Positions 17,868-61,860 of a DNA stretch of 64,000 nucleotides are shown here, one piece after another. Numbering within the stretch: the stretch's first letter is position 1; each line of letters opens with the position of its first letter. Source of the DNA: Cyanidioschyzon merolae. Its lineage: Eukaryota. The translations under genes were made by a program, and so were the position numbers. The stretch lies in NCBI GenBank assembly GCA_000091205.1, contig AP006495.2. One strand, 5' to 3'. The notes beneath the pieces are model-generated. The model was not told the origin of the DNA. It ran no database searches and saw only the letters and a list, made by a program, of their open reading frames with translations.

Positions 17868-18576
17868 AGCTCCCTGAGCTCGGCACTTCAAATAATGGAT
17901 TTCGTTCGAAAGACCAATCTCCCGATCTTTGCGGTCATCCACGAAACGGCGTTCGACGGCAGTATGCTACATCTCATTGGATTTTCTCCGAAACGCTCGT
18001 GTATATTCTGTTTGCTTGAACGTGGGTTTTGGACTTGAGTCACCGCTGCGACCGCTTCCGGTGGAGCCTGCGTTATGGATAAGCACGGACGGAGCGTAGA
18101 CGGACCAGAATATCTAGAGCGCTTCTTCAACCTGAATTTTCCTTGCGGTGGTTTTCTTTTATCATGGAAATCATCGCGTTTCACAAATCATTCATGGAAT
18201 AGAGCAGCGTGCACTCGCGCGTGCAGCGGAGAGCGTATTCACCAAAGCTGACTTTCCAGAACATAACTGTTCTCGTCCGGTACTGTATTGGACCTGGAAA
18301 CGGAGAAGGACATGTCCCGAGCGAAAAAGCTCGCTTTCACGCGCCTCAGAGCGGCACTCGGAGAGGGAATTGCGATGCATGTATGTGAAGACCTGATCAC
18401 GACCGAATGGAACCGCTACGAGAGACGCTCCGAAGCAGTGTGCAAAAAAATGAAAATGGGAAGCGACGCATCGTTCGCAACTTCAGCTTCTGCAAGACAT
18501 GCGAAAACGGAAGCTGTAATCCGCAAAATCGGGACTTGAACGCTGCCATCGACATCGTTCGTTTGCCGGCAACGGG
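17868..18576 (+). mobile_element. Family II TnpB/Fanzor-like relic, copy G. A shared 5' module is followed by a degenerate C-terminal zinc finger and RuvC-III. It is frameshifted at an A7 run.
   Basis: The 5' module 17868..18060 is homologous at nucleotide level to 33200.., 37497.., 57460.. and 61085... Translation gives ...EDLITTEWNRYERR..., then after a frameshift ...RNFSFCKTCENGSCNPQNRDLNAAIDIVRL* (motif 18517..18546, stop 18574). Confidence 0.5.
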
Positions 18577-19068
18577 ACCAGGCTGAAAACAGTGACTGAA
18601 GTATTGAAAGCCAAAGATAGACAGGGGGAAAGAAACAAGTTACAGGAAAAGTCCGCAACGGCTAGTGTTGATGTCAGTGGCAAAGGAGTCAAAGTTGAGC
18701 ATGTTCGCTCGAGTTCGTAGATCCGTTCCATTGTACGCCAATGTGGATGTAGTCCTGGGTGTCGTGCGTGCGTGCGCCGTGGAAACTCGTGCCACGGCAC
18801 TTGCGTGTCAGAAAGCGCGGGAACCCGTGGAACGCTTGCTTTCAGAGAAAATCGAGGTTTGAGGCTTTCATCTCTTCACGCCAAGACAGAGATTCCATAG
18901 GTAATTTTTCATTGCAAGGTACGATCGTTTTCACCACGGACTTTCATAGCCAATCAAGTATTTAGCGCTTTCGCGGTACATTTGGACCACGTTTCCGTAT
19001 TCAACTTTTCGTTGCAGTCCAAATAGTGCCGCGCGGTTTGGCGTTGGAGGCGGCTCGGGTAATGTATC

Positions 19069-19764
19069 TTGTCGAGCGAACGGGACACACGGTGTCGCAC
19101 CAGTTTGGTTTCCACGAGTTTCGACCAGATGGCCGCGGACGTCAACCGTGAACCATCGTTTGCGTGTAGCGCTTGCGGTGCTTCCCAGACGCTCTTCAAA
19201 CGCTACACGCTTTGTATCGGCTACGGGAATGCGAACGGTACGGAAACTGTTTTACTGGGCTTGAAACAACGAGGCTTTGGTCGAGGCAAGTGGAACGGAT
19301 TCGGCGGCAAAGTCGAAGCAGGCGAAAACGTCTGCCAGGCGGCACTCAGAGAGCTCTACGAGGAAGCCGGCGTCCACATTGTTGCCGATGGCCATCCGTC
19401 GAGTGCGCGTTGCACCACACCTCGTCATGATATACGGCGCTTCCGATGGGCTGGTTGTCTGTGCTTTACCTTCGAGGCGAAGTCCATGCCCAGAATGCAT
19501 GTAGATGTATTCAGCGGTTCCATTTGTGCATGTCGAGAGCCACGTGCCAGCGATGAAATGATTCCGCAATGGTACGCGTACTCGCAGATACCCTACGAGA
19601 GCATGTGGCCAGATGACGCGATATGGTTGCCACTTTTACTTCAGCAGGATCAGGAGCTGCATCCTCGAATTCTAATCGCGGAGTTCATTTACAATGATGA
19701 CGCGGATAACATTTTGAAAAGCAACGTTCGGCTGTTACCTCGGGAGCAAGCTGGCATCTTCTAA
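19069..19764 (+). CDS. Nudix hydrolase of the NUDT1/MTH1 type (MutT-like).
   Basis: Nudix box GKWNGFGGKVEAGENVCQAALRELYEEAGV. GFGGKVExGE is characteristic of MTH1-type 8-oxo-dGTPases. Confidence 0.8.
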   Translation: MSSERDTRCRTSLVSTSFDQMAADVNREPSFACSACGASQTLFKRYTLCIGYGNANGTETVLLGLKQRGFGRGKWNGFGGKVEAGENVCQAALRELYEEAGVHIVADGHPSSARCTTPRHDIRRFRWAGCLCFTFEAKSMPRMHVDVFSGSICACREPRASDEMIPQWYAYSQIPYESMWPDDAIWLPLLLQQDQELHPRILIAEFIYNDDADNILKSNVRLLPREQAGIF

Positions 19765-20405
19765 CGAGTGTCACTGACGCATCGTGCGCATGGTGCAAAC
19801 GTGGTGTAAACGCTTTGCGACGGTCACCGCTGGTCATTCTAAGCTCCAGGCGACACACAGAGGGGATTTGGATCCGCAGGCAGCAATGGTTTCGATGAAG
19901 CACAACGAGTCTGCTGCGCAGCAGCAGCGCGCGTTCACCTCAGCCTAGCACCCATCAGACCAGTTCAGCGCCACCCATCTGCCCGAACCGGGACACTCGC
20001 TTTTAAAGGCCTTTTCCGCTGCTCGAGGTACCACTCACCAAGGCGACGCCCAAGTACCGTACCCAGTCCAAGCATGAGTCCTGTAACTAAAGGGTACAGA
20101 ACGACTTCTTTCGCCCTTTCGAGCGCGCGCTGCGCTCGTGAACGATCGCCCGGTGCCATGGCCCTAGGTTCAGTGAGCAACAAGCCGCTCCGGCGAAAGC
20201 GCTTTCGATTAGTAGTCTAGGCACTTTTGTCGTGCGCACGTGCCGTCTTACAAGAGCGCCCCGAAGCAGCGACCTAAACGCAGTGCGTTGGCAAACGGAA
20301 CGCGATCGAGCCTGCTTTCCGCCGCTCGCTCGATTTCAGAGACCACGGACTGACCACGAATAGGCTGCCACGCAGATACCTGTGCGTGGACGTCTTTACA
20401 AGAAC

Positions 20406-22703
20406 TCAGCTCGATGATGGGGCAAACTTCGCACGAACCAGCAAGAAACGCCGTTCTAAAGTAGAACGTCGTCGGCGGTGTACAGTAGTAGCGACCGGTG
20501 CGCCTTGGACACCAAGTCGCCTACTGACGTGCAGACGCTTCCTAGGCTTTTTCGACCGGCCGCCTACTACTGCTTCCAATTGTGTCTCATATAGTAAAAC
20601 CTTAAGAGGTTGTCCAACAAAATTCTCGCGTGTCATCTCTGGAGGTCTCGTCTCCAACACCGCACATCTCCTTATATTGATGGCGGTAATAAAATCTCGG
20701 TTCACAAAATCCATCCGTTTCGTGCCGTTGGGAGTTGTACTTACTAATGCAAGCAGTCCACGAACTTTCGCTCTCCTTTCCATTTGCTCTTCCGTCAGCT
20801 GTCTATACTTTGCTATATCCTCAGGGCTCCTCTGGCACTTTTCCATCTCGACTCTCTGAAGTGTTAACCCCTGTTCATGGTGTGTGTGCTATGTTCGAAA
20901 CTCAACTACAGGTATCGTAACGAAACGCCTTGCACACTCCTTGTACATTCTTGTCGTTGGAGCTGGTGTAGTGCCTTTCTTGGGCACCCATCGTCCTGCT
21001 CCGTACGCTACGACGAGCCTCTGACTTTCCTCCTCCTTCAGGGCGCTCAACTCATTCAAAAAATTCGCGAACGCCCGCTGCCTCCCACCGTATAGATTCA
21101 TTCGCAAACGAGCCCACGGGGGTTGGTATACTCCTCCCATAGCGCATCCCGGTGCGCCATATGCGAACTTCCATGAATTTCCGGACAGCTCCAAAGTCCG
21201 CTCCTCGGCTCGTCACCTTACTCAAAGCTTCCGGGCGATCCTTCATTCCTGCATTCCGTTTCTCGATTTTCTTCCTCGCATTCATGATTCCCGATTCTCG
21301 ATAGTATCTCGCTCTCGAGATCCTCAAAAAAGACGCATGTCTTTCTGACGCAAGTTACCATCAGCACCATCTTCCGTACGCTTCGGTGCTACGATGGTTA
21401 TGATATTCGTATTCCCAGGGTCCGCGCCAACGACAAGGTCGTTATCCTGCACTTTCTGCGCGGCAGGATCCTCCTCCTTCTCATCTTTATGCATCGCCGC
21501 GCCAACGACAAAGTCGTTAGCTTGCACCTCCTGCGTCGCAGCATCCTCCTCTTTGTTTTCTTCATGCTTCGCCGCGCCAACGACAAGGTCGTTATCCTGC
21601 GCTTTCTGTGTCGCGGGACCCGCCTCTTTGTTTTCTTCATGCTTCGTGACGGGCGCAGCCGATGGAGGGACTGGACGATCTTTCTTCAACCTCCGATAGT
21701 GCACACACATGGCTACTCCATCGGGTTCGATCAACCCAGTGAATACCTTTTGTTTGCTCACTTTCAGACGTTTGAAATCGAAGATGCTCATCCAGTACGT
21801 CTCCCGGTTTCCGCCGGTGAAGTCCTCCCTGCTAACATCGAACTCCGGACAGATATCCCTCGTGATGCCGTAAAGGATTCTGGAGTTGATAGTCACAAAA
21901 TGTGACTTGATCTTGCACATTGGAACCACGTTGAAGTGCTTCCCCATTAGGACAGCCTTCCGTCTCTCCCACTCTTCCTTTGACTCTTCACTCAGCTTCA
22001 TCTCCGCTTTGCGTTCGAGCTCTCGGTCCAGAAACACAAAATAGCGCAGAACGAGGCGATCGTATCTTTCCCTATCTTTTTTCAACGCTGATATCTTGTC
22101 TGTTGGATTCGCCAGCCCCAGTACCGTACGATGCTCTTCGATAACCGCACGGATGACGGAATTCTCATTCGTGCTCTGGTTTGACTCCTTGTTGTCAACG
22201 AATTCGACCTCATTTCCATAGTTTCGATCGTTCGTGATGCCATTGATAATCGCCCATATTCCTTTGCGAGACAGGCCCCGGTAGAGTGCAAACACGGCGC
22301 GTATCATGAAACGTTCGAGGTTCATTCTGAAATGGTTCTTCAGATTCGTCAGGTACTTCATCGCCCCATATGTGTAGATATCCGCGTCACCCCTGTATTG
22401 GGTACCCTCGAAGAGGAATTCCGCGAAGTTTTCGTGGAGGACTTTCACCCGCTCATTTTCCCTCCGCGCTTCCTCTGTACCAAGCATCAGCTGACGAATA
22501 AAGGTCTTATCGAAAAACTCGTCCGGAATCTCGACCGTTTCCATGTTCGTCACGTAGAGGTACATCTCCTTCACCAAATGCATCAGTCCTGAAGATGCCT
22601 TTATCCTACTCATGGGGTACAACTCGAGAAGGTTTTTGATGGCCTCTCGCAACTTTTCCTTGTACGGATCCTTGATATATTTAAGAACACAGACTTTCAC
22701 CAC
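20406..22703 (-). pseudogene. Family I Fanzor/TnpB-like nuclease gene, copy B. It is near full length, about 640 aa in total, but is split into three reading frames by at least two frameshifts.
   Basis: Frame 1, 22703..21324, is 459 aa with an N-terminal helical region and ends in ...[19 protein letters not shown] (RuvC-I-like GxDPG, with the Asp near 21420). Frame 3, 21194..20889, reads RQRAFANFLNELSALKEEESQRLVVAYGAGRW...YKECARRFVTIPVVEFRT. Frame 4, 20846..20406, reads MEKCQRSPED...KRMDFVNRDFITAINIRRC (RuvC-III-like, 20673..20702). Compared with intact copy A, 14 codons (SYTHHELGCTLQRV) are lost at the 20846/20889 junction. Confidence 0.7.
21420..21644 (-). repeat. 75-nt (25-aa) tandem triplication inside the Fanzor-like ORF, immediately N-terminal to the RuvC-I aspartate.
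   Basis: Protein repeats [50 protein letters not shown] and [25 protein letters not shown]. Only the third unit keeps the Asp of GADPG. Confidence 0.6.
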
Positions 22704-23199
22704 TATCTCGTTGTACAGTTGTCTTTCTTGCCGCCTTCGACGTAGAACCTCCCCCTTTTTGAATCTTCATCACTTCCTGTTCCTCTTTGCTCCGCCTTGT
22801 TTATCTTTTTTTCCGGCAGCGGGTGATATCGGCCCTCCGGGATCCTCCACTTCCATTTCCATGACTTTCCTTTTAATTTTTTGAAAACGAACGCTCTTTG
22901 AACGCTTCTGTTATATACTTCGAAAAAACACTTGAATATACTCAATTGAGGGTCGGAATAGGATGGAACAGAAAACCTATACTTTGCTACGACCTCAACG
23001 CGAATACAACTTTTACAGTAGAATAGCACGCCAATGATCAGGATCACTGTTCCCCTCAAGAGCGACCAGAGCGTCGTGTCTCGTGCCCGCCGGATCTGCC
23101 AGGTGCGCGTGCACGCGCAGCGGCTGACCTGCGCCCCGCCGCCGATCAGGAGATTGCTTCTGGATATGTCTATCTCAAAGCGTGATAACCTGTTGCTGA

Positions 23200-25086: not shown

Positions 25087-25569
25087 ACCAAGGGCAACAT
25101 CCGCGATCGACACAGCGCTCTGCAAGTTGAGCGCGACTCGTGTGCTTGCCAATGACCGGGCTTGGAGTCGCAGCGGAACCTGCTCCTCAGCTATCAGGTG
25201 CCGTGGACCTGGTCGGGATCGGTAGCATCTACACTCGTGCAGTCCAAGCGTCAGACAGCACCGTGCTGAAAACAAACGCCTACTTGGCGCGCTTGTACGA
25301 CAGGACGCTGTGCAGAAGCATGTTTGGTGTCGTTTTCGACGATCTGAGGATCGATGCAAGGTGCGTCTTCGAGGAAGGCATGCTCGGACGGCAAAACTTG
25401 GGTACCAAGGGCACTTCGATGCCTGTTCGCATCGATCGCTGGTATGCTGCGTATCTGGTAGAGGCGAATACCGTACATAGAGGTACGCGCTCGTGCGTCC
25501 GTTCACCGTCTCGATCCGCTGCTGGTACGCGGCTGCGTTAGAATTTCGAGTACCCGACGCTGTTACGAC

Positions 25570-27000
25570 GTAGAGGCGCTTCTGTTGATAGTCTTTCAAC
25601 TCAATTTTGTTTCATCGCGGCTACGGTATATAGGAGGAGGACGAAATCACTAGGTAATGTTCTGTATAGATTGTCGACGAATTGCATACGGCATATGTAT
25701 TCTTCACTGAACAATGCAATGATGATTGCATTGCTCCTCGATGTCAACCATACTGCTATACTCAGATGCTTGACGAGCACTGAAAGAAACAAGTATATGC
25801 GCTCCGGGCCGAAACCTGATATTCTCAAAGCCTGCTTGCAATCAGTGATAGAAAACGACCAGTTGATCAATTTAAGGGAAGCAAATGCGTCCATAGTAGC
25901 CACCACGGGCGTCTCTGTTTCTCAACAGCTTATTCGCGTGATCCTGAAAACACCGGGATCCAATCGCAATAAAGTGCTAGTTCATTCACGGCCAGCTTCC
26001 ACCGAAATCGCAGGCACGGTGTTCCTGGAACGTCGCGATCGGTATGAAGCACAGGAACATCAGTTTGTTTTCTCACTCGATGAGACTTGCTTCAAACGAG
26101 ACAATCGCAGTGCAGATGAATACTTGCTGAGCGGGAGCCCGTTGCACGTACGCTCGAAATCGTAGAGAACGTCGACATCATCATCTGTTCTAGCTGCGGT
26201 GGATTCATTTGGCTGCCTCAGTTCCGCTGAAGAGAACACTCATGCAGCAGCGCCCTCTTTTTGTCGAGTCATCGAAGACTTGTCCCAAACGTCTGGTGAA
26301 GTCCTTCTATTGGACATAGTGGTATTTAGCCATTCTGCTTCAGTTCGAGCATTTGCCAATTCTATCGACGGGTAGAGCTGGTTTCATTCCTTCTTCTCAC
26401 CTGTGTTTCATTCCCATAGAAGGAGAGTTTTGCGTCCTGAATCGTCACGACCGCTCCACCGGGCGAATAGATGAAGCGTTCAGCACATGGTGACCAACCG
26501 GGGCACATTTGGTCTTTATTCCGCATGTGCTGCTCGATGCGGGAAGGTCGTCATCTCAGGCTATAAACAAGTGCGTTCATTTTCGAAAAATCTAAGGGAC
26601 GAGCTGGAATATACACCCTAGGATGTTGAGTTGGAGCGAGGCCAGCGGAGCGTTTCGTCGACGGATCAGCACGAAGAGCTGACAGAGCACCCAATGGCAC
26701 AGCGTGCACGAGTTCGTGGTCTCCTATCATTGGTGAGATCAACCAGCGGCAACAAACGCATGGAGTCCATGAACCGAGACCTCAACGCTGGTATCAATAT
26801 CAGGAGATGCTTGTGCTGAATGCGAGGCACGCAGCGCTGCGGCAAGCTAACTTTGTTGGGCAGCCTCACAGCGTCGGAGTGTATATGGAGAAACTGAAAC
26901 CGATACCAGAACCCTGTAAGAAAAGGCTGAGAGACGTCTGCGGGTGGATATTCATTTACACGATATTGTGGCGAAACGGGTTTGCTGCACTGACGTAACG
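25570..27000 (+). mobile_element. Family I composite element, copy C. An IS630/Tc1/mariner-like transposase N-terminal fragment is fused to an internally deleted Fanzor 3' module.
   Basis: ORF 25671..26165 reads ...GPKPDILKACLQSVIENDQLINLREANASIVATTGVSVSQQLIRVILKTPG...RRDRYEAQEHQFVFSLDETCF, an HTH followed by the first DDE-type Asp context. ORF 26631..26819 reads ...KRMESMNRDLNAGINIRRC (26772..26801). The 3' conserved block 26938..26995 ends ...TTGCTGCACTGAC and is truncated. The whole copy is collinear with copy F at nucleotide level. Confidence 0.6.
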
Positions 27001-32645: not shown

Positions 32646-33189
32646 ACCCTAGGCGTGACAACTCGAGTGCTTCGAGGCGCTCACTGGTCGCCTCGAGGTC
32701 AGCAGGCAGCAGACAAGCTGAGCTAGCGTTCGTCGAAGAGCGGCATACGCTTCATACGTATCCGAGTGAAGTGCACCACGGGATGCTGTGCTTTGTTCCT
32801 ACATCTCGGAGTATTTTCCGAACGAAAGTTTAGATGTGCAAAGTCGGCTTTCGACGTGCAAAAAGTAAGAGCTTACGGACGCATACAAGTAGCCTCAGGA
32901 TTCATGTCACGCTGTTCGACGTGGCTCTTTCGACGCTTTGCCGCTGGAATTCGGTACGTGGCCGGAATGAGGACGTTTCACGCCTCCTTCGAACTAGTTT
33001 TCGTGAAGCAAAGGATATCAATCGTCAGTCCATATGGATAAGCCTCCGGTCTTCTCCGTTCCTTATGTGCAGGATGTTCAAATCGCGCGTGCTTCAATTT
33101 TATGGATCTCTCGCTAAGGAACGTTATAGGCGATGTGGGATTGAAGGGGAATCCAAAAGCGGGGCGTCATTCCAGGATGCGTTCTTCGC

Positions 33190-33960
33190 CAGCTCAAGCC
33201 GAAAAGTCCCTGAGTTTCTCACCCAAATATTCGATTGCGTTCGAAAGACAAACCCTCCTGTGGCTGTGACCAGTGACACAACTGCATTCGACAGCACCGG
33301 CATGCTGCATTTCGGGTGACACGCTCCCAAACGCTTCCGTATCTTCTGTTTGCATCGAAAAGGCTCTTGTCTTCGGAATTGAGTCATCGCATCCACTGGG
33401 TCCAGCGGAGAGCGTCTTCATCGCTTTGCACAATGGGAACGGTGACGGGCAGACACTTGTGCTTATGATCTCCAGCCTGGATTTTGTTTTTGGTATTCGA
33501 TTTATGATGGAATTCATCACGTTCCATAAATCCTCGGTCAGCGGGAATAGCCTGCAACCGCCCGTGCACCAGACAGAATACTCCCGGAGGACATCACTCA
33601 GAAGAAGCCCCAGATCGTTGGATGCAGCACTGAGCGTTGAAAACGAGAACAGTATCCAATGGAGCCTTCTGGATCCGAAGGGGTATGAACAGAGCGACGC
33701 AGCGAGCCTGGACGCGCGACACAGCAGCGCTCGGAGCACGGGCAGGTCTGACACATGCATTCGGGAGGGCCTGACCACAACCAAGTGCCACAGCTAGAGA
33801 GTTTGCACAGAAGTTGTATACCAAGAGGCTCGAAATGGCAAGCGAACCGTAGATTGCATCTCCCGTCCGTGAACGCAATGCGTCGCAAACAACCAGAAGC
33901 GTCCGAATCGGGATGCTGACGCTACCGCCACCGTGCTTTCACTGCTGACATCGGAGCCGC
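33190..33960 (+). mobile_element. Family II TnpB/Fanzor-like relic, copy J.
   Basis: 5' module homologous to copies G, K, I and H. A possible RuvC-I-like WSLLDPKGYEQSDAASL. A Cys pair TCIREGLTTTKCH, then ...NGKRTVDCISRP..., then the RuvC-III relic NRDADATATVL (33906..33941), collinear with copy H. Confidence 0.5.
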
Positions 33961-34425
33961 AAAGAAATGAGAGACGGGCGTATCTAAAATCTGAGATAAG
34001 AGAGAGCAAACGGGCGCTGTTGCAGAAAATCCCCGCACACACAAGTGTTGGCGGCAGTGGAAACAGTCTCGAGCTTTAGAGAGCGCGTCCGAATTATGAG
34101 ACCTATTCCGTTTTAGGTGGATCCAGGTGTAGCGCTTTCGTCGTAAACGCAACGCACGAGTTCCAGTTCCATGCGATGCGCGAGACGCTGCCAGGCAGCG
34201 CGAGTGCTCGTTCTACCGCAGTCACCCGCTGGTACTGCCGATACCTTCGTGCTGTGCTCGCGTTTCGAAACGGGAACATGGCTCGTGTCGTCGCGCTGCT
34301 GCGCCCAAGTGTCAAGTTGTACGTCGCTCACGCTTTCGCTCAGCGTCAATAGATATCACTTGATCCTTTACAAAGCGCACGGCATCCATACTCCGTATCA
34401 TCGTACCGGATCGTTCGCTCGATGC

Positions 34426-36444: not shown

Positions 36445-37496
36445 CGCAAAACGTGCCTAGTAGCGTCGTCTACGCGTACTGGACAGGCGCGCCTCTGTGA
36501 CGTGGAGCCATGGCGTGTCCGGCGTCACGTATCGGTCACTTTGCCGCAGCGGTGTCCGAAAGCGCCCGTTTCTTCTTCATGGTCTAACATCGATGAGCGT
36601 ATTCAGGTTATGAACCATCATCCTCGTCGATAAGCGACCATTGTATTGGAGAATTCTAAAGAGACCTCTATCCATTGAAATAAGCATTTGCGTGTTGTAT
36701 TCTGCAGGGCATGAGCTCCCAAAACTGAATAGAAGGTAGGTTGATCCGGTACCTCTGCTGTTATTAAAGCTCTACGTGGACTCAGGCGGGCACCTACGAC
36801 AATCACCAGGAGCCGGTACTCTCGATAGGGACATTGCGGAGCTGTCCTGAGGCCCTTGTCACAGGGCGTCAGGTTTATGGACGGATTCAGAATCCCCTGT
36901 ACACGAGGTTTTCCCATCGGCAACCTGAAAAGTGACTGACGCGCTGCCACAGGTCTCTTCGATACACGCTTTACCACAGACCAGTCGTACCGGAGGAAAT
37001 AGGAGTTCGATGGGTCCAGCGATGCCCAGGGATCCGAGACTGCCCCAGACACTTGCTGCGACGCTACACTCGTGCGACATTCAAACGAAACGCTGATCTG
37101 CTTCCGCTGTTCCTGCATTTCGATCTTTTCCGAAGTTTTTTCAAGCACAGCCCCGAAAATCGAAGTGCAACAATATGCGGTGACGAATTCATGCGTAGTT
37201 TTTGGATTCCCAGCCGTCGTGTCGGATTGGCACATTCCAGGTTGTGTCGCTGGAGGTCGATGCGTCACCGGAATCCAGAGGAGGATTCTCGACGTCGTCG
37301 TACACGGGGTTCGTAAACAAAGCAACATCATAATCCAGTGCGTCCGTGCAAGCCTCCGCTTTTCTCCCTTCCTTACGTTTGGCGAGCGCTAGTCATGATT
37401 CTTCAGGTTCACGATTTGTCTGTGTCAAGGCAACTCACTCGTGGATGCAGCAACTCAATGGCATCCCTCGATGAATATCTCATAAGCTAACGCCAA

Positions 37497-38245
37497 AAGT
37501 TTACTGAAATTGTCACGTTATGTAAGCGATCTCGCTCGAGCGGCAAAAGAATCCTCCTCTGTCTGTGGCCCTCGACAAAACGGCATTCGACACCAGCAGC
37601 ATGATACCTCGAACGAGATATGCTCCACGAGGCGCCCGTATCCTCTGTTTGCATGAACAAGGATCACGGGCTCGTACTAGAGTCATCGCAACGATCGCTT
37701 CCAGCAGAGATCCTCTTAGCGCTCTGCACGTAAGGGCGCAAAGTTTGAAATTTCACGACTTGTTTTCCTTCCGGCACTCGTTTCCTCGTGGACAACGACG
37801 CTTTCCAAAAATGTTCTACCGAGTCCAACAGGATGCGCTTGCACTCGCAGCGAACAGAATACTCGCCTAGCGGATCGCCCAGAACAAGCCCGCTTTCGCA
37901 GGAGCGGCACTAAGCGCGGCAGCGGAGGATCGGAACTAGGCGCGCTTCCTGTACCCGTTATGGGTTTGCATTGAGCGATAGAGCAAACGTTGATGCAACA
38001 CAGGGCTGCCCCCGGAGAGCGCTTTGGTGTCCATACGGGAGCACCCGCCAATTATCAAAAGTAATCGCTGCGACCAGTGCTCCATGACTGTTTACAAAAG
38101 ACGATGAAGGTTGCTGGCGATGCGTAGAGATTACAACTGCCGTCTGTGTATAAAGTTCGTCGAGAGATCAGCGTGAAGCGGCAAAATCGCGGCGTTAACG
38201 CTGTGATAACCATCTCTCAACTGCTGACCACGGAGCTGGCGAGAC
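37497..38245 (+). mobile_element. Family II TnpB/Fanzor-like relic, copy K. Highly degenerate.
   Basis: 5' module 37497..37740 homologous to the other family II copies. Downstream are YNCRLCIKFVERS and, after a frameshift, KRQNRGVNAVITISQL (38185..38223). Confidence 0.4.
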
Positions 38246-39142
38246 AGGAGCGACCGGCGTATTGAATACCACGGATAAGAGCGTATGAAAGGAAGCAGTC
38301 ACAGAAAAAGCCCGTCAAGACTAGTGCTGATAACAGTGGCAAGCGATACATATTTTAGTCAGTGCGCGCGAATTCGCAAAGCGGACCCCTTCTACTCTGT
38401 CCTGACTTGTATTTGTATAAAGAAGTAGTGAACACGTCGCCCGAGTCAATGGAGACGCGGGAGTCGCGAGCTGCTGTTTCCATAGCGAACGTTGCAAGCG
38501 ATGCGAAAGGCACCACTTCGCGCATAGATATCCAGGTTTGCACTTCGATTCTTCAGAAATGAGCGGTCTCATCCCGTCGTTGCGGAAGTAGTACACTGAT
38601 TCTAGCTTCCTCCAGTAGGCTCCAGGTACGAAGCAGCCTATGCTTTGGGAAAGGTGTTCGACCTTTGGACCCGCAGTCGCTTTTGAAACCTGCTAGCAAA
38701 GCCGCTCACCGCATACGAAGCCGCGTATTCTCTGCGAATAAAAAGTCCGACGTTCAGGCATGAAACCGTTTCGAAACTTTCCAGCGGAGCCTGCATTTCC
38801 AGTAGAACTCAACGAGACGCTAAGACCGGCTACATATATGGCTGGGTACTCGCCCGGTTAGCAGGTACGCTCGCTGAACCTGTGCCCGTTCACGACGCGT
38901 TTCAGTCCCTAGCGCTTGTCGACAGCGGTGCTCGTGAGCAGCAGCTCGTTACAGCGCACATTCAATGAGACATGTAGACTGCTGCAGTCCCGAGCAACGC
39001 CCTTGCCAAGTAACGGGTACCGAGATCCACCGTTTGTACTGCCGCAGCGCCTTGTCGCTGACGTCCAGCTCGCTGGAACCCAACACCGCTTTCAGGGCGA
39101 GCGCGGCGACGCCCTAGTTCGCGTTCCAGCGAGCCGGTCTCT

Positions 39143-45229: not shown

Positions 45230-45761
45230 GTTCGAAATGCATTCATTTGAAGAAACAGAGAGAATCCAAGGAAAATTATAGACTGAAATTCGGGGATCCA
45301 GAAGGGCCCTCATCACCGCGTTATACCAGCGAACGAAAAATCCCCTAGTCGCCGACCATCGAGCGAAGAGGAACAAGTGACGAAGAAGCGGAAGCAAAAG
45401 GGAGATAGTCGCCAAAACGGTGATCTCTCGACCGGACGATGACCAGACTCTAGAGGCACATAGGGAACGAGAACCAGGAATCCATGCAAAGGTGACTTCA
45501 ACAGGAGCGAAGAAACGCAAAGAGTTCGTGAGCCGCGACGGAAACGCTGCTATCAATAGCAGACGATTTGCGGCGCTGAACGCGAGAGCCGACGAGCTGA
45601 TGCGATCCAAAATTGCGAGGCAGCGTCTCAGGATCCATGTGTGCCTGGATAACACTGACCCCGATACCAGGATGCGGGTGGAAACACACTGGGAGGCGTC
45701 TGCGCGCGGGTACTCATTTTGCCTCCATTGTCATAGAACGTTTATCGTTTTCCTGACCATA
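45230..45761 (+). mobile_element. Family I element, copy D. A 3' fragment followed by TA.
   Basis: ...KKRKEFVSRDGNAAINSRRF (45531..45560). Terminal block GTCTGCGCGCGGGTACTCATTTTGCCTCCATTGTCATAGAACGTTTATCGTTTTCCTGACCATA, then TA at 45762..45763. Confidence 0.55.
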
Positions 45762-49419: not shown

Positions 49420-49979
49420 CTATTTCGCGGTTTATTGCAGAGACATTCAAAGCGCGTTCCGTGGAAGGAATAAAACATCCCAGGGGAATGCACGGACCAA
49501 GTCGGGGACCCCGAAGGATCGTCCTCGCCAGGTGCCAGAAAAAACGAAAAATATCCTCTTGTCATCGAGTTTAGAGCGAAGAAGAGCAAGTGACAAAGAA
49601 GAAAAAGATGATGATTCGTGTTGGTAGGCGATTCAACGTGTACGCACGACGGAACGATGACGAGACTATGGTGGCACAGAGGGAACGAGTGCTAGGAATC
49701 CTTACAAGGATGACTTCAAGCATCCTCAATGCACGCAGTGAGCTCGTGAACCGCGACTTGAACACTGCTATCAATACCAGACGATTTTCGGTGCTGAACA
49801 CGAAACCCCAAGAGCTGACGCGAGCCAACTTCGTGGAGCAGCCTCTGATACTCAAAATGTGTAAGGAGAAGCTGGAGCCGATAGCAGGCGGCCGGTCAAA
49901 AAATGGTTGGGTGACGTCTGCGGGTGGGTATTCATATACCCTACATGATCGTGCGAAAACTTTTGTTTCAGTGACCACA
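49420..49979 (+). mobile_element. Family I element, copy E. A 3' fragment followed by TA. Its right end lies 50 bp upstream of the next gene's ATG.
   Basis: ...SELVNRDLNTAINTRRF (49749..49778). Conserved terminal block GTCTGCGGGTGGGTATTCATATACCCTACATGATCGTGCGAAAACTTTTGTTTCAGTGACCACA, then TA at 49980..49981. Confidence 0.6.
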
Positions 49980-50028
49980 TAGTGCATGTGAATAAATCTG
50001 TTCTGATGTATAGCTCTTCGGGATCCGC

Positions 50029-54876: not shown

Positions 54877-55146
54877 TCACTTGGCTCCCGCTTCTGAAGT
54901 TGTCGCTACTGCTTGCTCCGCTTGCCCCTCCTCCTCAGGTTGCACGCCGATTTGTTCCATTAGGTCAGTGATGCTCTTTTCCAGTTCATCAATGCGGCTC
55001 GACATGTCTTCGATTCGCGATAAGATCGTGGAACTCATGCTCTCAAACCGTGACTGCATCTGTTCCAAGAGCTTTTGGACGTACTCAGTGAGATCCTCAA
55101 CCGGCTCCTGCAACTCTGACGTATTTGTCTTGTTTTCTGTTGCCAT
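54877..55146 (-). CDS. Heat shock factor-binding protein 1 (HSBP1).
   Basis: MATENKTNTSELQEPVEDLTEYVQKLLEQMQSRFESMSSTILSRIEDMSSRIDELEKSITDLMEQIGV matches the HSBP1 heptad coiled-coil (..[38 protein letters not shown]..). Start taken at the Met at 55146. Confidence 0.8.
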   Translation of the reverse strand: MATENKTNTSELQEPVEDLTEYVQKLLEQMQSRFESMSSTILSRIEDMSSRIDELEKSITDLMEQIGVQPEEEGQAEQAVATTSEAGAK

Positions 55147-55929
55147 CGTGTCTGAAAGGTGCCTATAAAAAACGTTCTCGCGCGCGAGCAAGGCGACGAA
55201 CGCTCAGCGCAAGGTCGTCGTCGACAAGTGCGTGCAGGCGTACGCGCGCCGGCTCGCGCTTCGATCGCTGGCGGGTTCCAGAGGGCGCGTATACCGCTGG
55301 TGCCTGCCCGGCGCCTTGGCTGGCTGGATCGCCCCAGGTCGACTGCCTCCCAGCCGCTCTTGCTATCTTGTCATTGGTGCAGGGTCGATGACGCGTACGA
55401 GACCCGCCGGATTACGCTGGCGTAGCCGATGATGCGTACACGAACTGCGCCAAGAGCCGTTTGATGCTCGTGCGTACCACGACGCCTCGAGGGGTGTCGC
55501 TTTGAAAAAGGCACGCTCAATAGGTCAAGCGGGTGTCTGGATGCCGAACTAAACACGTCAAGCTCCGCGGTGGATCCGGTGGCACGCTCAGTGCAAGGCG
55601 CGGTTGCCACACGCAGGCCAGGATACCAAGCAACTGTGAACAGTTCGCGCGCTTCCCAGCTTGAGATATTTTTTGGAACACTTTCTTCGATGTGCAGTCT
55701 CGATATCCAAAGTGGAACAGTAGGGGCTAACGAATGCCTCAATTGTTTTAGGAGCCTCGACCGTCCTTTCGAAGTTGCCTTGCTGCTAGAGCTTGTTGCG
55801 TCACCGAAATGAAAATGATTCGCAATGCCTCCGAACAAGGATTCGTAAACGAACCGATAGCTTTCTTTCATTCATCCGGACACGCCTCCACTATTCTCCT
55901 TTTCTGACGTGTGAGATGGTAAAATCATG

Positions 55930-57389
55930 CATTGTTCAAATGTTCGATCTTTATTTTTCAACTCAACTCGATCCTATCCACACTGACTGCAGTCGCATGC
56001 TTTCTCGCACTGTATAGCAGCAGATCAAGATCAAGATGCCATGTACCATACAGACGGTAGAAGAATTGCCTATAGGATCCATTCTTTACTGGACAGTGCA
56101 AGGGGATTGCATTTCTATCTCAGGTCAGTCATGTAACAGTACTCAAATTGTTGAAAGACTCGGCAAGAAAGAATAAGATGCGGTCAACGCCAAAACCGAT
56201 ACGCTTACGGACCGCTCGCGGTCCATGGTAGGAAAACGACCCGTTGATTACCTTACGGAAAGCAAAAATCAACGATAGTGTACACCACCACTGGCGTCTC
56301 TGCTTCCCAATAGCTTGTTCGTGTGGTCCTGAGAACACCTGGAAACACTTGTAAAACAGTCCCAGGTCATGCACGGCCATTCGCCACAGAATTCGCAACT
56401 GCAGAAGAGTTCCCGGAGCTTTGCGATCGGTATGAAGCAAATGGACAACGCTTTATTCTTTCAGTCGGTTCGATCTGCTTCGGACGAACCAGTCGGAGCT
56501 TGTATGGGTATTCGCATCGAGGCAGATCGTTGTATGTACGATCGAACTGGAAGCGAACGATGGCGCCATCTGTTCTAGTTTTAATGGGTTCATTGAGCGA
56601 CCTCTGTCTTGCTCGTGGAGCAGAAACATCCAACAGCACCAACCGCCTTGTCGAATAATAGAAGACTCTTCGCTGACGTACGGCGACTTTATTGGTCAAC
56701 GTGGCATTTGACAATCCGCCTTGCGTTCGAGCTTTTGGGAATTCTATCGGAATAGAGCTGATTTTCATTCCTCCGTACGCTCTTTAATTCAACCGCAACG
56801 AAAGAGTGCTTTCTACTGTGAAACGTAATCATCGGTCCACCGGGCGAGTCGCCGAAGCATCCAGCACACTGTGACACACCCGGGCACATTTCGTGGTCCT
56901 TCCGCAGGTCCTTCACCTTTGGGGAAGGTCCTCACCTAAACGCATAAAATAGTGCATTCATTTTCAGGAAATAAAAAATCGATGGTATGAGTTTGGATGC
57001 ACACTTCAGAACAAAGAGATGGAGAAGAGCCAGCGGAGCGCTTCGGTGATAGAAAAGCACCGAGAGCTGACACAGAACCAAATGACACAGAGTGAACGAG
57101 TTCTAGGAATCCTTGCATTGGTGGGTTCACGCAGCGACGATAAACGCATGGAGTTCGTGATACGAGACCTCAACGCTGCCATCAATATCCGACGATATGC
57201 AGAGCTGAAGACGAAACCCGCAGAGCTGTAACGATCCAACTTTATGAGGCGACCTATTAGGATCGAAGTTTGCAACGAGAAACTGAAACCGACAACAAGC
57301 AGCTGATCGAAAACGACTGGGTGGCGTCTGCACGTGGATACGCATCTACCCTACATAATCGTGCGACAATTTTTGTTCCACTGACCACA
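55930..57389 (+). mobile_element. Family I composite element, copy F: a Tc1/mariner-like N-terminal fragment plus an internally deleted Fanzor 3' module. Followed by TA.
   Basis: Nucleotide sequence collinear with copy C. ORF 56323..56658 reads ...LRTPGNTCKTVPGHARPFATEFATAEEFPELCDRYEANGQRF... ORF 57019..57231 reads MEKSQRSASV...KRMEFVIRDLNAAINIRRY (57160..57189). Terminal block GTCTGCACGTGGATACGCATCTACCCTACATAATCGTGCGACAATTTTTGTTCCACTGACCACA, then TA at 57390..57391. Confidence 0.6.
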
Positions 57390-57459
57390 TACCATGTCTG
57401 AATAACTTTTTGGCGTCCTCCTGTGACGACTCGTCGGCAAGCTCACGCAGAAATTTCAC

Positions 57460-58300
57460 TGAACTTGTCAAGTCAAATACTCGATTCCATTTGAAAGACA
57501 ATGCCTTCTCACTTGGTTGCTATCGATGGAACCACGGTCGACTTCAGTTCGACAAATCCCGGGAGATACGCACGCAGTGGCTGTCTTCTCTTGTATTTGC
57601 GTGGAAAAGGTCTGGGGCGCGGACTCTAGTCACAGCGGTGATCTCTTCGGGTGCAGCGTGCGTCACGACTTCGCATGGGCGGAGCGTAGACGAATCGAAT
57701 TTTCTCGACTTGATCTCCAGCATGGATTACCATACCGGCGCTCGTTTCATCATGGACAAGCTTGCGTTCCACAAATCCTCTTTCGAATGGGACAGCGTGT
57801 GCTTGGTCGTCCTACGGATATTGAGTTCGCCACGGGCATCGCCCTAAACAAGTCCATGATCGTTGGGTCCGGCAACTGGCTGGCGCGGAAACCTTCCAGG
57901 ACGTCGCGGGGAGCCTTCTGGATCCGTCACGGGCCTGTGCCGGGCGATGCAGCGAGCGGTCACGCACCGCAGGGCGCCAATCTGAGGACGACAAATGGAG
58001 AATACACTCGAATGCCTGACTACCGACGAGTGGCACTGCTACGAAAGGCGCATCCGGGCTCTATACAAACAAGCGAAAAACGGCTGGCGAGGCGTCGATC
58101 GCAGCATTCGCCTGTGCATGGAAAACATGAAAAACATTCGAAAACAGCGTGATCAGGAGTTTAGCGCTGCCACGAACATCTTGCGACTGCTGAAAAAAGA
58201 GCTGGAAGCACAGGAGAGACTGGGGCATTTAAAACCTGAAAAAAGATACCCTCAAAGGGAACAGTTGGAAAAAGTCTGCAAAGGCTGGCATTGATAAAAC
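57460..58300 (+). mobile_element. Family II TnpB/Fanzor-like relic, copy I, about 70 bp downstream of family I copy F.
   Basis: 5' module homologous to copies J, K, G and H. ORF 57995..58294 reads ...LTTDEWHCYERRIRALYKQAKNGWRGVDRSIRLCMENMKNIRKQRDQEFSAATNILRLL (RuvC-III relic about 58145..58192), collinear with copy H. Confidence 0.5.
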
Positions 58301-58743
58301 CGGGAACAGACTCAAACTTTCGTTCACGCGCCCGAGCTGGCGTGCCCGTTCCGCTGAGTTTTCACCTGGGTGCTTAGCTCATGCACGAACGCGCTAGGAC
58401 TCGTTCAGAAAACGGACCCCTCTACAGACGCACCTCATGGAAAACCCCATGCTCACCGGGGCGCCGTCTTACGTCTCAACCCAATGCTGCCTTTTGCTGC
58501 GTTTCGCTCTCCAATCAACCTACGCCTCAGGCGATACGCCCATGAGCGCAGGTAACAAACCTACAATCGAAGCGTCTAGGCAGCCGGCAGCGTTGCGGTC
58601 GAGAGGGTGTCCCCGTGTCGCTCGGCCAATATCGTCCATAAATATACAACATAGAACAACCCATGAGGCTCCAGCTCCGATGACCTGCCTGCGAGCGATC
58701 CATTCGGCGTGCTTCCTGCGCGAACGATACCCGTCGAACAGCA

Positions 58744-59343
58744 GTGAGGGTGTTTCAGGTAACCGCGTCCAAGGGCACTATGGTAAGCTGTGTTTTCTTC
58801 GTGTCTACATTTCATCCATATTCTTTGAATTGGCAACCACGAAACGCACCGCTTCTGCGCAGAGAAACGCTAACCCGGCGACCGACACCTGTTGTGGTGC
58901 AACGACGCGCGAACGGAGCTGCGCTGCCGATTCGGACCGAATGGAGCGGCTGGACGCGTCCTGAAAGCGGCGTGCGGCGTATGCCTACGAACATGCCCCG
59001 TGGACGCTCCAGGAAACCGTCATTTAGCCCAACTGGAGGCGGCGCTACGACACTGGAACGGGAGGCTGTGCGGGAAAAGACAACGGCAACCAAGGGTGTG
59101 GACCCCGGCAAGAAGTACAAGCTACTGCTGTTTAATGACGAGAAGAACACGAGGGAACGTGTCGTTGAGGTGCTCCTCAAGTGCATTCCGGGTCTTTCCA
59201 AGCTGGATGCACAGTCCATTATGCAAAAAGCACACACGACGGGCATGGCACTCGTCGGTGTCTGGGTCTTCGAACTCGCGGAGGCGTACTGCGACCTGCT
59301 GCGCTCTGAAGGCCTTGTCTCAGATATAGAGCCAGCTGAGTAG
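58744..59343 (+). CDS. ATP-dependent Clp protease adaptor protein ClpS, with an N-terminal extension of about 110 aa that could be a transit peptide.
   Basis: ClpS core KKYKLLLFNDEKNTRERVVEVLLKCIPGLSKLDAQSIMQKAHTTGMALVGVWVFELAEAYCDLLRSEGL, compared with bacterial YKVILLNDDYTPMEFV..L.......EQATQIMLTVH.QGKAV.GV...EVAE. Confidence 0.8.
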   Translation: MRVFQVTASKGTMVSCVFFVSTFHPYSLNWQPRNAPLLRRETLTRRPTPVVVQRRANGAALPIRTEWSGWTRPESGVRRMPTNMPRGRSRKPSFSPTGGGATTLEREAVREKTTATKGVDPGKKYKLLLFNDEKNTRERVVEVLLKCIPGLSKLDAQSIMQKAHTTGMALVGVWVFELAEAYCDLLRSEGLVSDIEPAE

Positions 59344-59534
59344 CAAGCGATTTGTACAGTATTTGCGCTACGTTGTCCTTTATCCGGCATCGATCCGAGA
59401 ACGGGTAACGCAGGGCAGAGCGCTCACCGAGAGGTATTCGCGTGCGTGCGCACGTGTATTCCTGGTGTGTCGTCTCCGAGCCGCCACCATGAACCGCGCA
59501 CGCTTCAGCTTCCTTCGGATGCTCATTGCCGCAG

Positions 59535-60329
59535 CTATCGGGCACTTTGCTGAGATACCAAGGTGCTTAGACCACCGTCTACCGCCAAGACCTGCCCCGT
59601 GATGAACGGATTCTCTATGAGCAGGACAATGGCGCTCGCCACCTCTTCGGGACGTCCGATTCTACCTAGCGGATGAAGCACTTCGCTTGCTTTTCTCGAT
59701 GCTGGTCGCTCCGTGATAAACGATGCAAGTGGCGTCTCCGTCATACCCGGTGCTACACAGTTGACGCGGAGTCCACGCGGTGCGAACGACGCGGCTGCAC
59801 TACGGGCCATGCCTATCACCCCGGCCTTTGCTGCTGCGATCGCTTCATGGTTCGGTAGCCCGTGCATGCTCACAGCACTTGTACAGAGAGTAACACTCTT
59901 GTTCACCGGACCGTCTCCCGTGGACTGGCGGAGGCGCGGGAGTTGTTTACAGGCCGCTCGCAGGACGTAAAAGGCGGAAGCAGTATTCAGCTGTAGCGTT
60001 TCCTGCAACAGCTCGTCGGAGACTGAGGTTATGGGCTTCAAAACGATAGAACCTACGCAGTGCGTCACGTGGTCCAGCGTCCCGTGCTGATCCAGCGCCT
60101 TTTTAAACGCTTCCTCAACCGCTGCAGACTGCAAAATATCCGCAGCGTGAACAGTCGGCGCGCCTGTGTCGCTAGGGCGCGACCCACCGAGCTCGCCAGC
60201 GAGTTGGTCCAGTTTCTCCTTGTTTCTTGCGACTAGAACTAGCTGGTGGCCTCGCTTATGAAGTAAGCGAGCCGTAGCAGCCCCAATTCCACCTGTCGCT
60301 CCGAAAATAATCGAGACTGGACCGGCCAT
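59535..60329 (-). CDS. Short-chain dehydrogenase/reductase (classical SDR). The ORF is open upstream to 60737, which may be a presequence or non-coding.
   Basis: MAGPVSIIFGATGGIGAATARLL (TGxxxGxG). Later catalytic region ...SAVSMHGLPNHEAIAAAKAGVIGMARSAA (YxxxK-like context A..AK). PG motif NCVAPGMTETPL. Confidence 0.75.
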   Translation of the reverse strand: MAGPVSIIFGATGGIGAATARLLHKRGHQLVLVARNKEKLDQLAGELGGSRPSDTGAPTVHAADILQSAAVEEAFKKALDQHGTLDHVTHCVGSIVLKPITSVSDELLQETLQLNTASAFYVLRAACKQLPRLRQSTGDGPVNKSVTLCTSAVSMHGLPNHEAIAAAKAGVIGMARSAAASFAPRGLRVNCVAPGMTETPLASFITERPASRKASEVLHPLGRIGRPEEVASAIVLLIENPFITGQVLAVDGGLSTLVSQQSAR

Positions 60330-61084
60330 GGCAATGTGAAACAGGGAATAGTCTCTGAAAATGAACGTGATTGCTCTTGAGCTTGATCTCGGCACTGGCC
60401 GATGCGGCCGCGATGCAGCAGGTGCTTGCATTTGCTCGGTTTTCGAGAACTTCGGGTCTCGCCAGCTGCATTGATCAAGAACAGCGACACCAAAGCATGG
60501 CAAGCCAGGTACATATGCTGACCACGAAAGCGTTCGGACAGCCGGCAGCGAGGATCCCGAGTTCAAGAATTGTCGCTCTGGACCAAGGCGCTTGAGAGAG
60601 GTCCGCGCCTCGAGGCTGAACGTGTGCTGGACCTGCGTTGCGTCAAAATGGAACACTAAAATGCTCGCTCTCTTCCTGTCTTTCGAGTTTTCCCAAAATT
60701 TCTCACGTATTCTGCATCGATATTCGGAATGGAGCAACTGCGGCTCATGGAATCAAATAAAGCATTAGGATTCTCGGTAGTGGGTTCAGGATGGATTCTT
60801 CGACTTTTTGCCGCTTGAGTTCGTGATGTCATCGGGATCGAGATACTTCGCGAAGCGAACGAACGTGGTGTCGTAAAATAATCGATATCGTCATCCGATT
60901 CAGGAGTATACGTCTACGCACGTGTCCGCTCCGTACGAGTTGCGTACCCGAATCAAACAGTCTTGAAGTTTTCGCTTTTCTAGATGCAAAGCGAGTCGTG
61001 TGCACAGCGATTCGCGTCGCTGGATTGACGAGGAGGAAAGATGAGCGTCGTCCCCTGATGACTTGTTAACAAGAACATGTCGAA

Positions 61085-61860
61085 AGTTCGCAGAACTCGT
61101 CACGTCAAATAATTGATTCCAGTCGGAAGGCAAAGCTTCTTCACTCTGTGCGGTAATCGACGGAACGGCACGCTACAGCAGCGCGACACGTCTCCGGGGA
61201 TAAGCTCCCAGACGCTCTCATCAGCTCTGTTTGCATGGGATAGGTCTAGGACGCTGACTTGAGTCATAGAAGCAATCGCTTCTTTCGAAGTGTTCGTCAA
61301 CGCTTTGCACGAAGGAAGCCTTGACGAAATGATACTTCTCGAGTACAGCGCCAACATGGATAATCCGTTCAGTCGGTTAGCTCGTCATGAATAACATCGC
61401 GTTCGACAAATTCTCTATTGACTGGAACAGTGCGCCTGCAGCCGACGTAGTACTCGCCGAGGGAAACGCTCAGACAAAGTCCGTGATCGTCGGCTGCGGC
61501 ACCGGATGCGGAATGCGAAAAGGACATCGCAGGGAGACTTGCATATCCACCAGGGGTAAGTATGGAGCGATGAAGGAAGCGGTGACGCGCCATCAGGCGG
61601 CATTCGGAGAATGAGGTGTGATGCACATATGAGAATCCACGACCAAAGCCAAGTGCCATCGTTGCGAGAAGCGAACCAGGGAAATATACAAAGAAGATGA
61701 AAATGGCAAGCGAAGCGGAAATCGCAACCGTGGGCTTTACATGTCACGCGTTGACAATAGCAGGAATCAGCGTAATCGGGAGTTTAAAGCCGCCATCAAC
61801 ATCCTTCGATAACTGTCAACGGATTCAGAGGCACAGGAGGGACGGATCCAGTGAACTCGA
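61085..61860 (+). mobile_element. Family II TnpB/Fanzor-like relic, copy H.
   Basis: 5' module 61085..61330 homologous to the other family II copies. Downstream translation gives KCHRCEKRTREIYKEDENGKRSGNRNRGLYMSRVDNSRNQRNREFKAAINILR* (motif 61774..61809, stop 61810). Confidence 0.45.

Follow-up and report, generated by a model that had tools for sequence, protein, structure and literature searches.

The window analysed here, a 64,000-nucleotide stretch of Cyanidioschyzon merolae 10D nuclear DNA (contig AP006495.2; GC ~54%), carries five related loci, G, J, K, I and H (hereafter family II), which are very probably dead copies of one old, non-autonomous transposon family: a deletion derivative of a mariner-type element that carried a Fanzor1 gene. 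Fanzor1 proteins are eukaryotic TnpB-type RNA-guided nucleases. The autonomous ancestor would have been an IS630/Tc1/mariner composite of ~3.3 kb, in which a DDE_3 transposase gene was followed directly by a Fanzor1 gene. An internal deletion of ~2 kb would have taken out the final third of the transposase gene together with ~600 codons at the start of Fanzor1, leaving a 1,376-bp unit that presents, in order, a 5′ terminal inverted repeat (TIR); an ATG, a helix-turn-helix (HTH) region and a DDE_3 part with the first two catalytic Asp residues, up to ...MDNIAFHKS; the junction; the C-terminal ~175 codons of Fanzor1 with GYG, WEHLTT, a C4 zinc finger and the RuvC-III NRD; a short tail; and the 3′ TIR. 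A master copy that was itself non-coding would have spread by means of a transposase acting in trans, which would have recognised the TIRs and inserted the element at TA; a single burst of spread would have been followed by neutral decay.

The five loci align along ~920-960 bp (MAFFT), and an nhmmer profile of family II finds exactly five matches in the window, all on the plus strand. Profiles built with one copy left out recover every omitted copy at E = 1e-128 to 1e-151; their sole extra match is a marginal RuvC-III motif of family I, the other Fanzor-like family of the window. The homology and shared strand proposed in a preliminary description of this DNA are thereby borne out, even if five copies on the same strand are not significant by themselves (2 x (1/2)^5 = 0.06). 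If the copies are so clearly related, why are they not found by a standard search? Pairwise identity is 0.53-0.60 among the nine copies known first and 0.54-0.59 among the window copies, and because it reaches only 53-60%, family II goes undetected in a default self-blastn of the window (E < 1e-5). Relaxed-scoring blastn returns whole-length alignments at ~60%, whose statistics were not trusted; leave-one-out nhmmer was used instead. All five copies are collinear at the nucleotide level: collinearity had been noted for H, I and J, correctly, but it is not restricted to them. Homology also continues beyond the limits first mapped, by ~430-460 bp on the 5′ side and ~140-170 bp on the 3′ side, and then ends abruptly. 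A unit measures 1.34-1.38 kb from TIR to TIR, rather than 1 kb or less, and the first coordinates took in about half of each copy.

The make-up of the unit is best seen in a consensus of 43 copies, which reads in one frame from the ATG: MYSLDIRSAAIRAY...VAPSTLCRWN...VAIDETAF...FIMDNIAFHKS. In VAIDETAF and FIMDNIAFHKS one recognises the first two Asp motifs of a DDE_3 transposase: the 5′ part reaches 38-45 bits on Pfam DDE_3 (cut-off 28.6), matching only profile positions 3-94 of 146, while HTH_33, HTH_Tc3_2 and HTH_32 score below their cut-offs. The consensus is collinear, in a single frame through the N-terminal part, with the complete transposase P0204 (E = 5e-34) and with P0071 (E = 2.5e-45), a protein discussed below. 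These matches indicate that the 5′ part of the element is the N-terminal HTH and the first two-thirds of an IS630/Tc1/mariner DDE_3 transposase; the conserved 5′ module by which the loci were first recognised is the region around its first catalytic Asp. The DDE triad is incomplete: the HTH and the first two Asp are present, and a deletion has taken the third catalytic residue (the ...YSPDFNPIE region). Family II thus descends from a transposase gene yet cannot encode a transposase.

This 5′ module could be taken for the N-terminal, RuvC-I-bearing part of a TnpB/Fanzor protein. On that account, the unit would be a short but complete TnpB/Fanzor-like gene in which RuvC-I is followed by RuvC-II, the zinc finger and RuvC-III; the unit, at 1.38 kb, is indeed near the size of a bacterial tnpB, its 3′ third is truly derived from Fanzor1, and the plus-strand frame with VAIDxTAF looks superficially like RuvC-I. 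However, the DDE_3 identity of the Asp motifs speaks against such a gene, as do the TIRs, which bound the unit as in the mariner-type relatives L016 and L015, and the absence of a matching RuvC-I: when the ~160-aa RuvC-I-bearing segments of 13 full-length relatives were compared with the consensus, the best match had E = 0.02, frames and strands were mixed, and none was significant. No RuvC-I, WED or REC homology was found in family II, and the consensus yields no open reading frame (ORF) with RuvC-I/II/III collinearity. The RuvC-I Asp is the first D of the published Fanzor signature D-X(125,275)-[TS][TS]-X-X-C4-X(5,50)-RD (Bao and Jurka, 2013). A complete short TnpB/Fanzor gene is therefore highly improbable. 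Two candidate assignments were dropped after the same segment-wise test and the alignments with P0071 and P0204: VAIDGTAF as RuvC-I with FHKSS as a TnpB-like motif, and an alternative frame (SSLDD...RFRSKDK) as a Fanzor RuvC-I, which one long P0054 high-scoring segment pair had prompted. The coding strand could not be assigned from tblastx of the upstream flanks, which scored best in minus frames, nor from codon-position variability among the five copies, which was noisy.

The 3′ third has another source. A profile of frame-corrected copy translations finds a single match among 5.8 billion proteins, P0051 (E = 3e-13). A phmmer search with P0051 yields 217 relatives (among 1.84 billion representatives), including proteins of 680-800 aa; its matches also include many short GC-rich ORF fragments, which are further family-II copies. 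Across 24 full-length or near-full-length relatives there is no variation in the RuvC-I Asp, the Gly, the Glu, the R and D or in three of the four Cys; at least 90% of these proteins also have the fourth Cys. A profile of these relatives matches the solved Fanzor1 proteins PpFz (9cf0, Parasitella; 1.7e-18) and SpuFz (8gkh, Spizellomyces; 1.4e-14), followed by Fanzor2, Cas12f and TnpB; the match to 9cf0 and 8gkh spans the sIeTDG strand, the RuvC-I Asp, E-x-x-T-[TS]-x-x-C, the zinc finger and NRD. The profile is required: a PDB search with the single sequence P0062 returned nothing relevant. By hhalign, the nine-copy consensus matches the 680-800-aa family with a probability of 100% (E = 2e-43), and the C-terminal part of the consensus scores 29.6 and, as the translated 43-copy consensus, 32.7 bits on Pfam Cas12f1-like_TNB (PF07282; cut-off 26.3), a match of the C-terminal third only.

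The translated 43-copy consensus reads ...KPVIVGYGTGRGNGGGHRGEPSVPVKGMYRAMKQAFTRHR...DIWEHLTTAKCHRCEGRTEAVYKEDENGKRSVDRNFRLCMKCVDNSRKQRNRDLNAAINIL..., with the motifs VIVGYG...DIWEHLTTAKCHRC...RLCMKC...RNRDLNAAINIL. It contains the [TS][TS]-X-X-C4 zinc finger, then the RD of RuvC-III, and the Gly and Glu specific to Fanzor1; the signature motifs of the 3′ third are GYG, WEHLTT, CxxC…CxxC and NRDxNAAINI, partly mutated in the five window copies. All this points to a Fanzor1 gene as the source of the 3′ third. The Cys-pair and RuvC-III-like blocks first noticed are homologous to each other and do come from a TnpB/Fanzor gene, specifically Fanzor1, and the peptide relics given for G, H, I, J and K are all found in plus-strand frames; the TnpB/Fanzor label thus suits the 3′ third and not the 5′ module. 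Unlike SpuFz and PpFz, which match the source family of the 3′ part by profile, the window copies retain no more than the final ~175 codons, with no RuvC-I, WED or REC. Family II probably could not form a nuclease even before it decayed, and RNA-guided cleavage is implausible for a fragment without RuvC-I.

Is there an element in which both source genes are whole? Contig L016 (Logan ERR12944136, 45-3315) encodes P0204 (45-1010), a 321-aa protein with a complete DDE_3 domain (77.9 bits), and, 10 nt away on the same strand, P0074 (1021-3315), a 764-aa Fanzor1. L016 is 3.3 kb long and begins CTACACCTGAGTGCACATAAAATGCAAC, which resembles the family-II 5′ end and TIR. This related contig presents the intact parent layout, transposase then Fanzor1. 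On L006 (ENA, a low-GC contig), a transposase C-terminus lies upstream of an internally deleted Fanzor1. L006 and L011 (ENA, GC 33%) together show a 756-aa Fanzor1 in both intact and internally deleted forms.

P0071 (449 aa; L015, Logan SRR33769809, 516-1865) is an intact in-frame chimera that is collinear with the entire family-II unit. Its N-terminal half consists of an HTH and a truncated DDE_3, its C-terminal half of Fanzor (Pfam: DDE_3 28.9, HTH_28 25.2 and TNB 25.4 bits). The Fanzor half shares 65% identity with the full-length Fanzor1 P0202 and ~33-38% with family II; because it is so much closer to P0202, the P0071 chimera must be independent of family II. The left breakpoints of the two lie within 1-2 codons of each other.

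P0071 raises the question of whether family II once encoded a functional in-frame fusion of a mariner HTH, half a DDE domain and the C-terminal half of Fanzor, a regulator or a hybrid RNase-H-fold nuclease, with the copies as its pseudogenes. DDE transposases and RuvC share the RNase-H-like fold, P0071 is an intact ORF of just this architecture, and the coincident left breakpoints would also speak for it. Yet the family-II halves are out of frame: the FHK-to-QRAL spacing is 26 nt in 33/43 copies, and the codon that is Trp in the relatives is TGA in 13/43 copies (the plurality) and TGG in none of the 43. Two catalytic residues, the third of the DDE triad and the RuvC-I Asp, are also missing from a chimera of this kind; P0071 and family II arose independently; just one intact chimera is present among the 150 phmmer matches listed and the 11 matches of a P0071 search; and AlphaFold2 models P0071 poorly over the DDE part (pLDDT 27-58; pTM 0.39; mean pLDDT 63), so that the packing of the halves cannot be read from it. 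A Foldseek search with this model returns the paired-domain HTH, Fanzor/Cas12f and Mos1 at E ~1e-3. We regard a functional fusion as quite improbable. Together, the TGA in the DDE part and the out-of-frame junction imply instead that the master copy was already non-coding and spread as a non-coding passenger. The nine-copy consensus had shown two frameshifts and an early stop after ...LAY; the 43-copy consensus reveals the first frameshift and that stop to be artefacts and upholds the junction frameshift and the TGA in the DDE part.

The 43-copy consensus, 1,376 bp from TIR to TIR, ends in an inverted repeat of ~30 bp, CCGCTACACCCGTGTCAGATTAAAATGGAAC against CCTCTACACCCATGTCAGAATAAAATGGAAC, which matches at 28/31 positions; its score of 47 was reached by 0/500 shuffles (14.1 ± 2.2). 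With the nine-copy consensus this test gave no significant result (score reached by 49/1000 shuffles), and a repeat search on L015 found no inverted repeat. The ends of L016 and L015, both mariner-type relatives, resemble the family-II TIRs. Among the dinucleotides that flank the unit, TA is the most frequent, in 11/43 copies at the 5′ end and 10/43 at the 3′ end, with ~2 expected from a composition estimate; a C stands before the 5′ TA in 28/43 copies and a G after the 3′ TA in 18/43. This pattern suggests a TA or CTAG target site, which may have been duplicated on insertion.

At least 59 distinct copies of family II are known: five in the window, four from ORF look-ups and 50 from a metagenome scan. 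The scan was keyed on six exact 8-aa peptides and is very insensitive, which makes the counts lower bounds; it gave at least 50 distinct copies on different contigs, and 34 of the 50, among the matches listed, extend over the full length and share the same ends. The six key peptides are absent from all nine first-known copies, and no full-length scan representative is a window copy. Since the first-known copies lack the scan peptides, the true number per genome is probably much larger: there may be several hundred family-II copies, accounting for several percent of a genome with a reputation for being nearly transposon-free. Five copies in one orientation inside 44 kb could also have come from segmental or tandem duplication in this chromosome region rather than from transposition. 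But the flanks of the copies are unrelated and homology stops sharply on both sides; the window copies (0.54-0.59) are no closer to one another than to other loci (0.53-0.60); at least 54 other distinct loci lie on other contigs; and the unit is bounded by TIRs. Local duplication can be given almost no weight.

Among the nine copies, pairwise identity is uniform (0.53-0.60), within the window as well as between window and other loci, which suggests a single burst. The copies share 0.69-0.77 identity with the 43-copy consensus (~27% divergence), and their Kimura two-parameter distance to the nine-copy consensus is 0.30-0.37. The heavy decay first reported is real: each window copy carries 4-11 stops and 4-11 frameshifting indels. 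Family II is older than CMe-1A, a Fanzor1 family already published for C. merolae, as identity to the respective consensus is ~73% versus ~80%. With close strains sharing at least 99% identity, orthologues offer no useful divergence to compare, so single-nucleotide polymorphism (SNP) density alone was used: relative to an environmental strain of 99.3% identity, there are 6.6-22 SNPs/kb in the copies, 8.1/kb in the rest of the region, mostly intergenic, and 2.2-2.7/kb in genes. The copies thus appear to accumulate SNPs at the intergenic rate, fitting neutral decay, and probably have no present function.

If the copies are dead, why are so many full length in a compact genome? One answer would be that the host has co-opted the relics as regulatory DNA or non-coding RNA, possibly a Fanzor guide-like RNA. 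Their uniform length (34/50 additional copies among the matches listed) and the position of all five window copies between genes would agree with this, and Fanzor guide RNAs (fRNAs) are known to derive from the 3′ non-coding region adjoining the transposon right end (PMC10530073). Still, the SNP density of the copies equals the intergenic background, ~3x that of genes; the copies differ by 40-47% pairwise, with many indels; the 3′ 291 nt of the consensus fold no better than shuffles (minimum free energy z = 0.27), where covariation is not to be expected among dead copies of one master; and no Rfam family matched in the 64-kb window. Co-option is very unlikely. Somewhat less so, though unlikely all the same, is that the retained Fanzor 3′ segment was a cis-acting, fRNA-coding right end, through which the element was kept or homed by Fanzor1 acting in trans, as a "guide-only" hitchhiker. 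This idea comes from two observations: all four deletion derivatives (family II, P0071/L015, L006 and the repeat type at 25851 and 56003 described below) retain the final 300-650 nt of their Fanzor gene, and the two independent chimeras share a near-identical left breakpoint.

Several points weigh against a dead mariner-Fanzor1 derivative as described here. No autonomous partner, that is, an intact transposase with a Fanzor1 of the same lineage, was found in C. merolae, where the whole genome was not scanned; the parent layout is seen only in related organisms (L016, L006). A purely random deletion does not predict that the left breakpoints of P0071 and family II should coincide, and the intact 449-aa P0071 leaves room for a once-functional fusion protein. 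TA is kept on each side in only about a quarter of the copies, which leaves the duplication unproven, and the preceding C and following G could be the outermost bases of the TIRs. The SNP counts, finally, are small, 8-9 per element segment.

How does family II compare with known elements? Fanzor1 genes within Tc1/mariner-type transposons have been described before: PUl-1, PGv-1 and Mariner-2_PGv (Bao and Jurka, 2013; PMC3627910) and "Fanzor1c" with Mariner/Tc1 (Jiang et al., 2023; PMC10530073). The putative family-II parent would share their layout, with the transposase 5′, Fanzor1 3′, the same orientation and TIRs, and the family-II Fanzor part shares the Fanzor1 signature motifs. While the published elements are low-copy and mostly intact, family II is a 1.38-kb deletion derivative with neither gene complete and at least 59 decayed copies. 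The Fanzor inventory gives no Mariner-associated Fanzor for C. merolae and lists one family, CMe-1A: ~150 copies at ~80% identity to consensus, 3,169 bp, one 734-aa ORF, no TIRs (PMC3627910). Like family II, CMe-1A is an old Fanzor1-derived repeat family with relics in the window. It belongs, however, to another Fanzor1 lineage: identity to family II is 26% over the C-terminus (tblastn, E = 0.035), which agrees with the separation of families I and II in the preliminary description, and blastn and nhmmer found no nucleotide similarity between family II and family I/CMe-1A in the window. CMe-1 has no CxxC pairs, which family II has; family II, in turn, combines TIRs with a DDE_3 5′ half, is the older of the two and contains no intact ORF.

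Non-autonomous deletion derivatives are known among class II transposons: Ds comes from Ac, and Stowaway-type MITEs (miniature inverted-repeat transposable elements) come from Tc1/mariner. Family II resembles them in having kept both termini and lost its coding capacity, and would resemble them in having been mobilised in trans and amplified beyond its parent. It differs from typical MITEs in its larger size (1.38 kb) and in its interior, where a gene-gene chimera can still be recognised instead of anonymous sequence. The P-MITE survey gives no MITEs for C. merolae (PMC3964958), and no description of family II was found in the literature that could be searched. The kind of element is known; this mariner-Fanzor1 derivative family appears to be new, and an ordinary genomic fossil.

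Element coordinates in the window, all on the plus strand, were mapped from the 43-copy alignment and consensus. Copy G (17407..18749, 1343 bp; leave-one-out E = 2e-142) is 76% identical to the nine-copy consensus and has 7 stops and 6 frameshifting indels. Its transposase-derived part, from the ATG through the HTH and DDE_3 to ...FHKS, is at 17487..18190 by consensus mapping (consensus DDE_3 38-45 bits), with the first Asp codon at 17940, the second at 18167 and the TGA at 18036. The Fanzor1-derived part, from QRALA... to the ancestral stop (18205..18699), reads ...RNFSFCKTCENGSCNPQNRDLNAAIDIV and has GYG at 18278, E at 18387, CxxC at 18408 and 18491, and NRD at 18527. Copy J (32753..34129, 1377 bp; E = 2.5e-131) shares 71% identity with the consensus, carries 7 stops and 8 frameshifts, and keeps its ATG at 32834, which opens a 161-aa ORF. 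Its transposase-derived part was mapped from the consensus to 32834..33533, where the N-terminal segment of P0071 also matches (E = 0.001); the Fanzor1-derived part at 33548..34079 was placed by frames, tblastn and mapping and includes NRDADATATVL from 33906.

Copy K (37067..38413, ~1347 bp, 3′ end ±5 bp; E = 3.5e-128) has 5 stops and 11 frameshifts, and its 5′ flank is cta|CACTCGTGCGACATTCAAACGAAAC. In its transposase-derived part (37143..37814, consensus mapping) the start codon is mutated to AAG; the Fanzor1-derived part (37829..38358; frames, tblastn and mapping) reads NRGVNAVITISQL from 38185. Copy I is split. Its 5′ portion (55610..56002), with the 5′ TIR, the ATG at 55690 and the HTH region, lines up with the sequence at the upstream end of copies G, J, K and H, and its breakpoint was located. 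It is followed by a nested insertion on the plus strand at 56003..57392 (1.39 kb), a family-I-related element and not family II, homologous to 25851-26959, 49647-49981 and other loci and composed of a DDE-like remnant and a CMe-1-like C-terminus (RDLNAAINIRRY at 57163-57219). The 3′ portion resumes at 57393..58372 (E = 1.9e-145), with the DDE part to 57778, the Fanzor1-derived part at 57793-58322 (tblastn with Fanzor1 relatives down to E = 1.5e-9) and the 3′ TIR. Copy H (60630..61999, 1370 bp; E = 3e-151) has 11 stops and 5 frameshifts; its transposase-derived part was mapped from the consensus to 60707..61413, and its Fanzor1-derived part (61428..61947) is the best preserved, KCHRCEKRT...NRNREFKAAINILR, matching intact Fanzor1 relatives by tblastn at E = 3e-14.

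C. merolae is a reference "minimal" eukaryotic genome, repeat-poor by the usual description. Family II is a second, older Fanzor-derived family in it beside CMe-1A, one that escapes blastn-level repeat detection; in the window, its five elements, all intergenic, cover 6.8 kb (10.6%). A profile from the 43-copy consensus would allow a sizeable share of "intergenic" DNA to be annotated and dated. The family documents a mariner-borne Fanzor1 lineage in Cyanidiophyceae and a decay route of such composites, and it cautions that C-terminal RuvC-III/zinc-finger relics alone are not to be counted as Fanzor/TnpB genes. It describes no active system and touches no major open question; its value lies mainly in repeat annotation of a model genome.

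Other repeats of the window are related to these families. Family I, at 9248-9889 (+) and 21106-20466 (-), is the published CMe-1A Fanzor1 family: its two copies are 81% identical to each other, and their translations (…QRLVVAYGAGRW.TQKGT.PAPTTR…VTIP.DEFR.S.THHE…VNRDF..AINIR) closely match the CMe-1 protein, with some substitutions (Bao and Jurka, 2013, supplementary file 3). Within the minus-strand relic, three tandem 75-bp units (21422-21646; ~83% identical) encode KKTKRR-rich repeat peptides. A third repeat type occupies 25851-26959 (+) and 56003-57392 (+), with fragments at 49647-49981, 45429-45610 and 6829-7089 (-); it has a DDE_3-like remnant (Pfam 19.3 bits, below the cut-off) and then a CMe-1-like extreme C-terminus (NRDLNAGINIRRC, RDLNAAINIRRY). 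This type seems to be another, distinct derivative in which a deletion joined a transposase to a Fanzor tail, and its copy at 56003-57392, being nested inside copy I, is younger than the insertion of copy I. A ~400-bp inverted repeat (3-404 vs 25994-25590; 73% identical) connects the left edge of the window with sequence that overlaps the 25851 element and reaches just upstream of it. Family II and CMe-1A-type relics together form a large share of the "intergenic" DNA of the window, ancient transposon debris that blastn-level repeat finding does not see.

The genes between these relics are ordinary and essentially intron-free: AsnRS, a UvrD-like helicase, an M16 peptidase, eRF1, a P-type ATPase and GDH. 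Four long ORFs match BAM80971, BAM80984, BAM80985 and BAM80987 exactly, and ARAGORN finds no tRNA in the 64-kb window. At the 5′ end of the M16 peptidase ORF (14907-16733), 14822-14923 and 14936-15039 form an adjacent direct repeat of ~104 bp with 81% identity.

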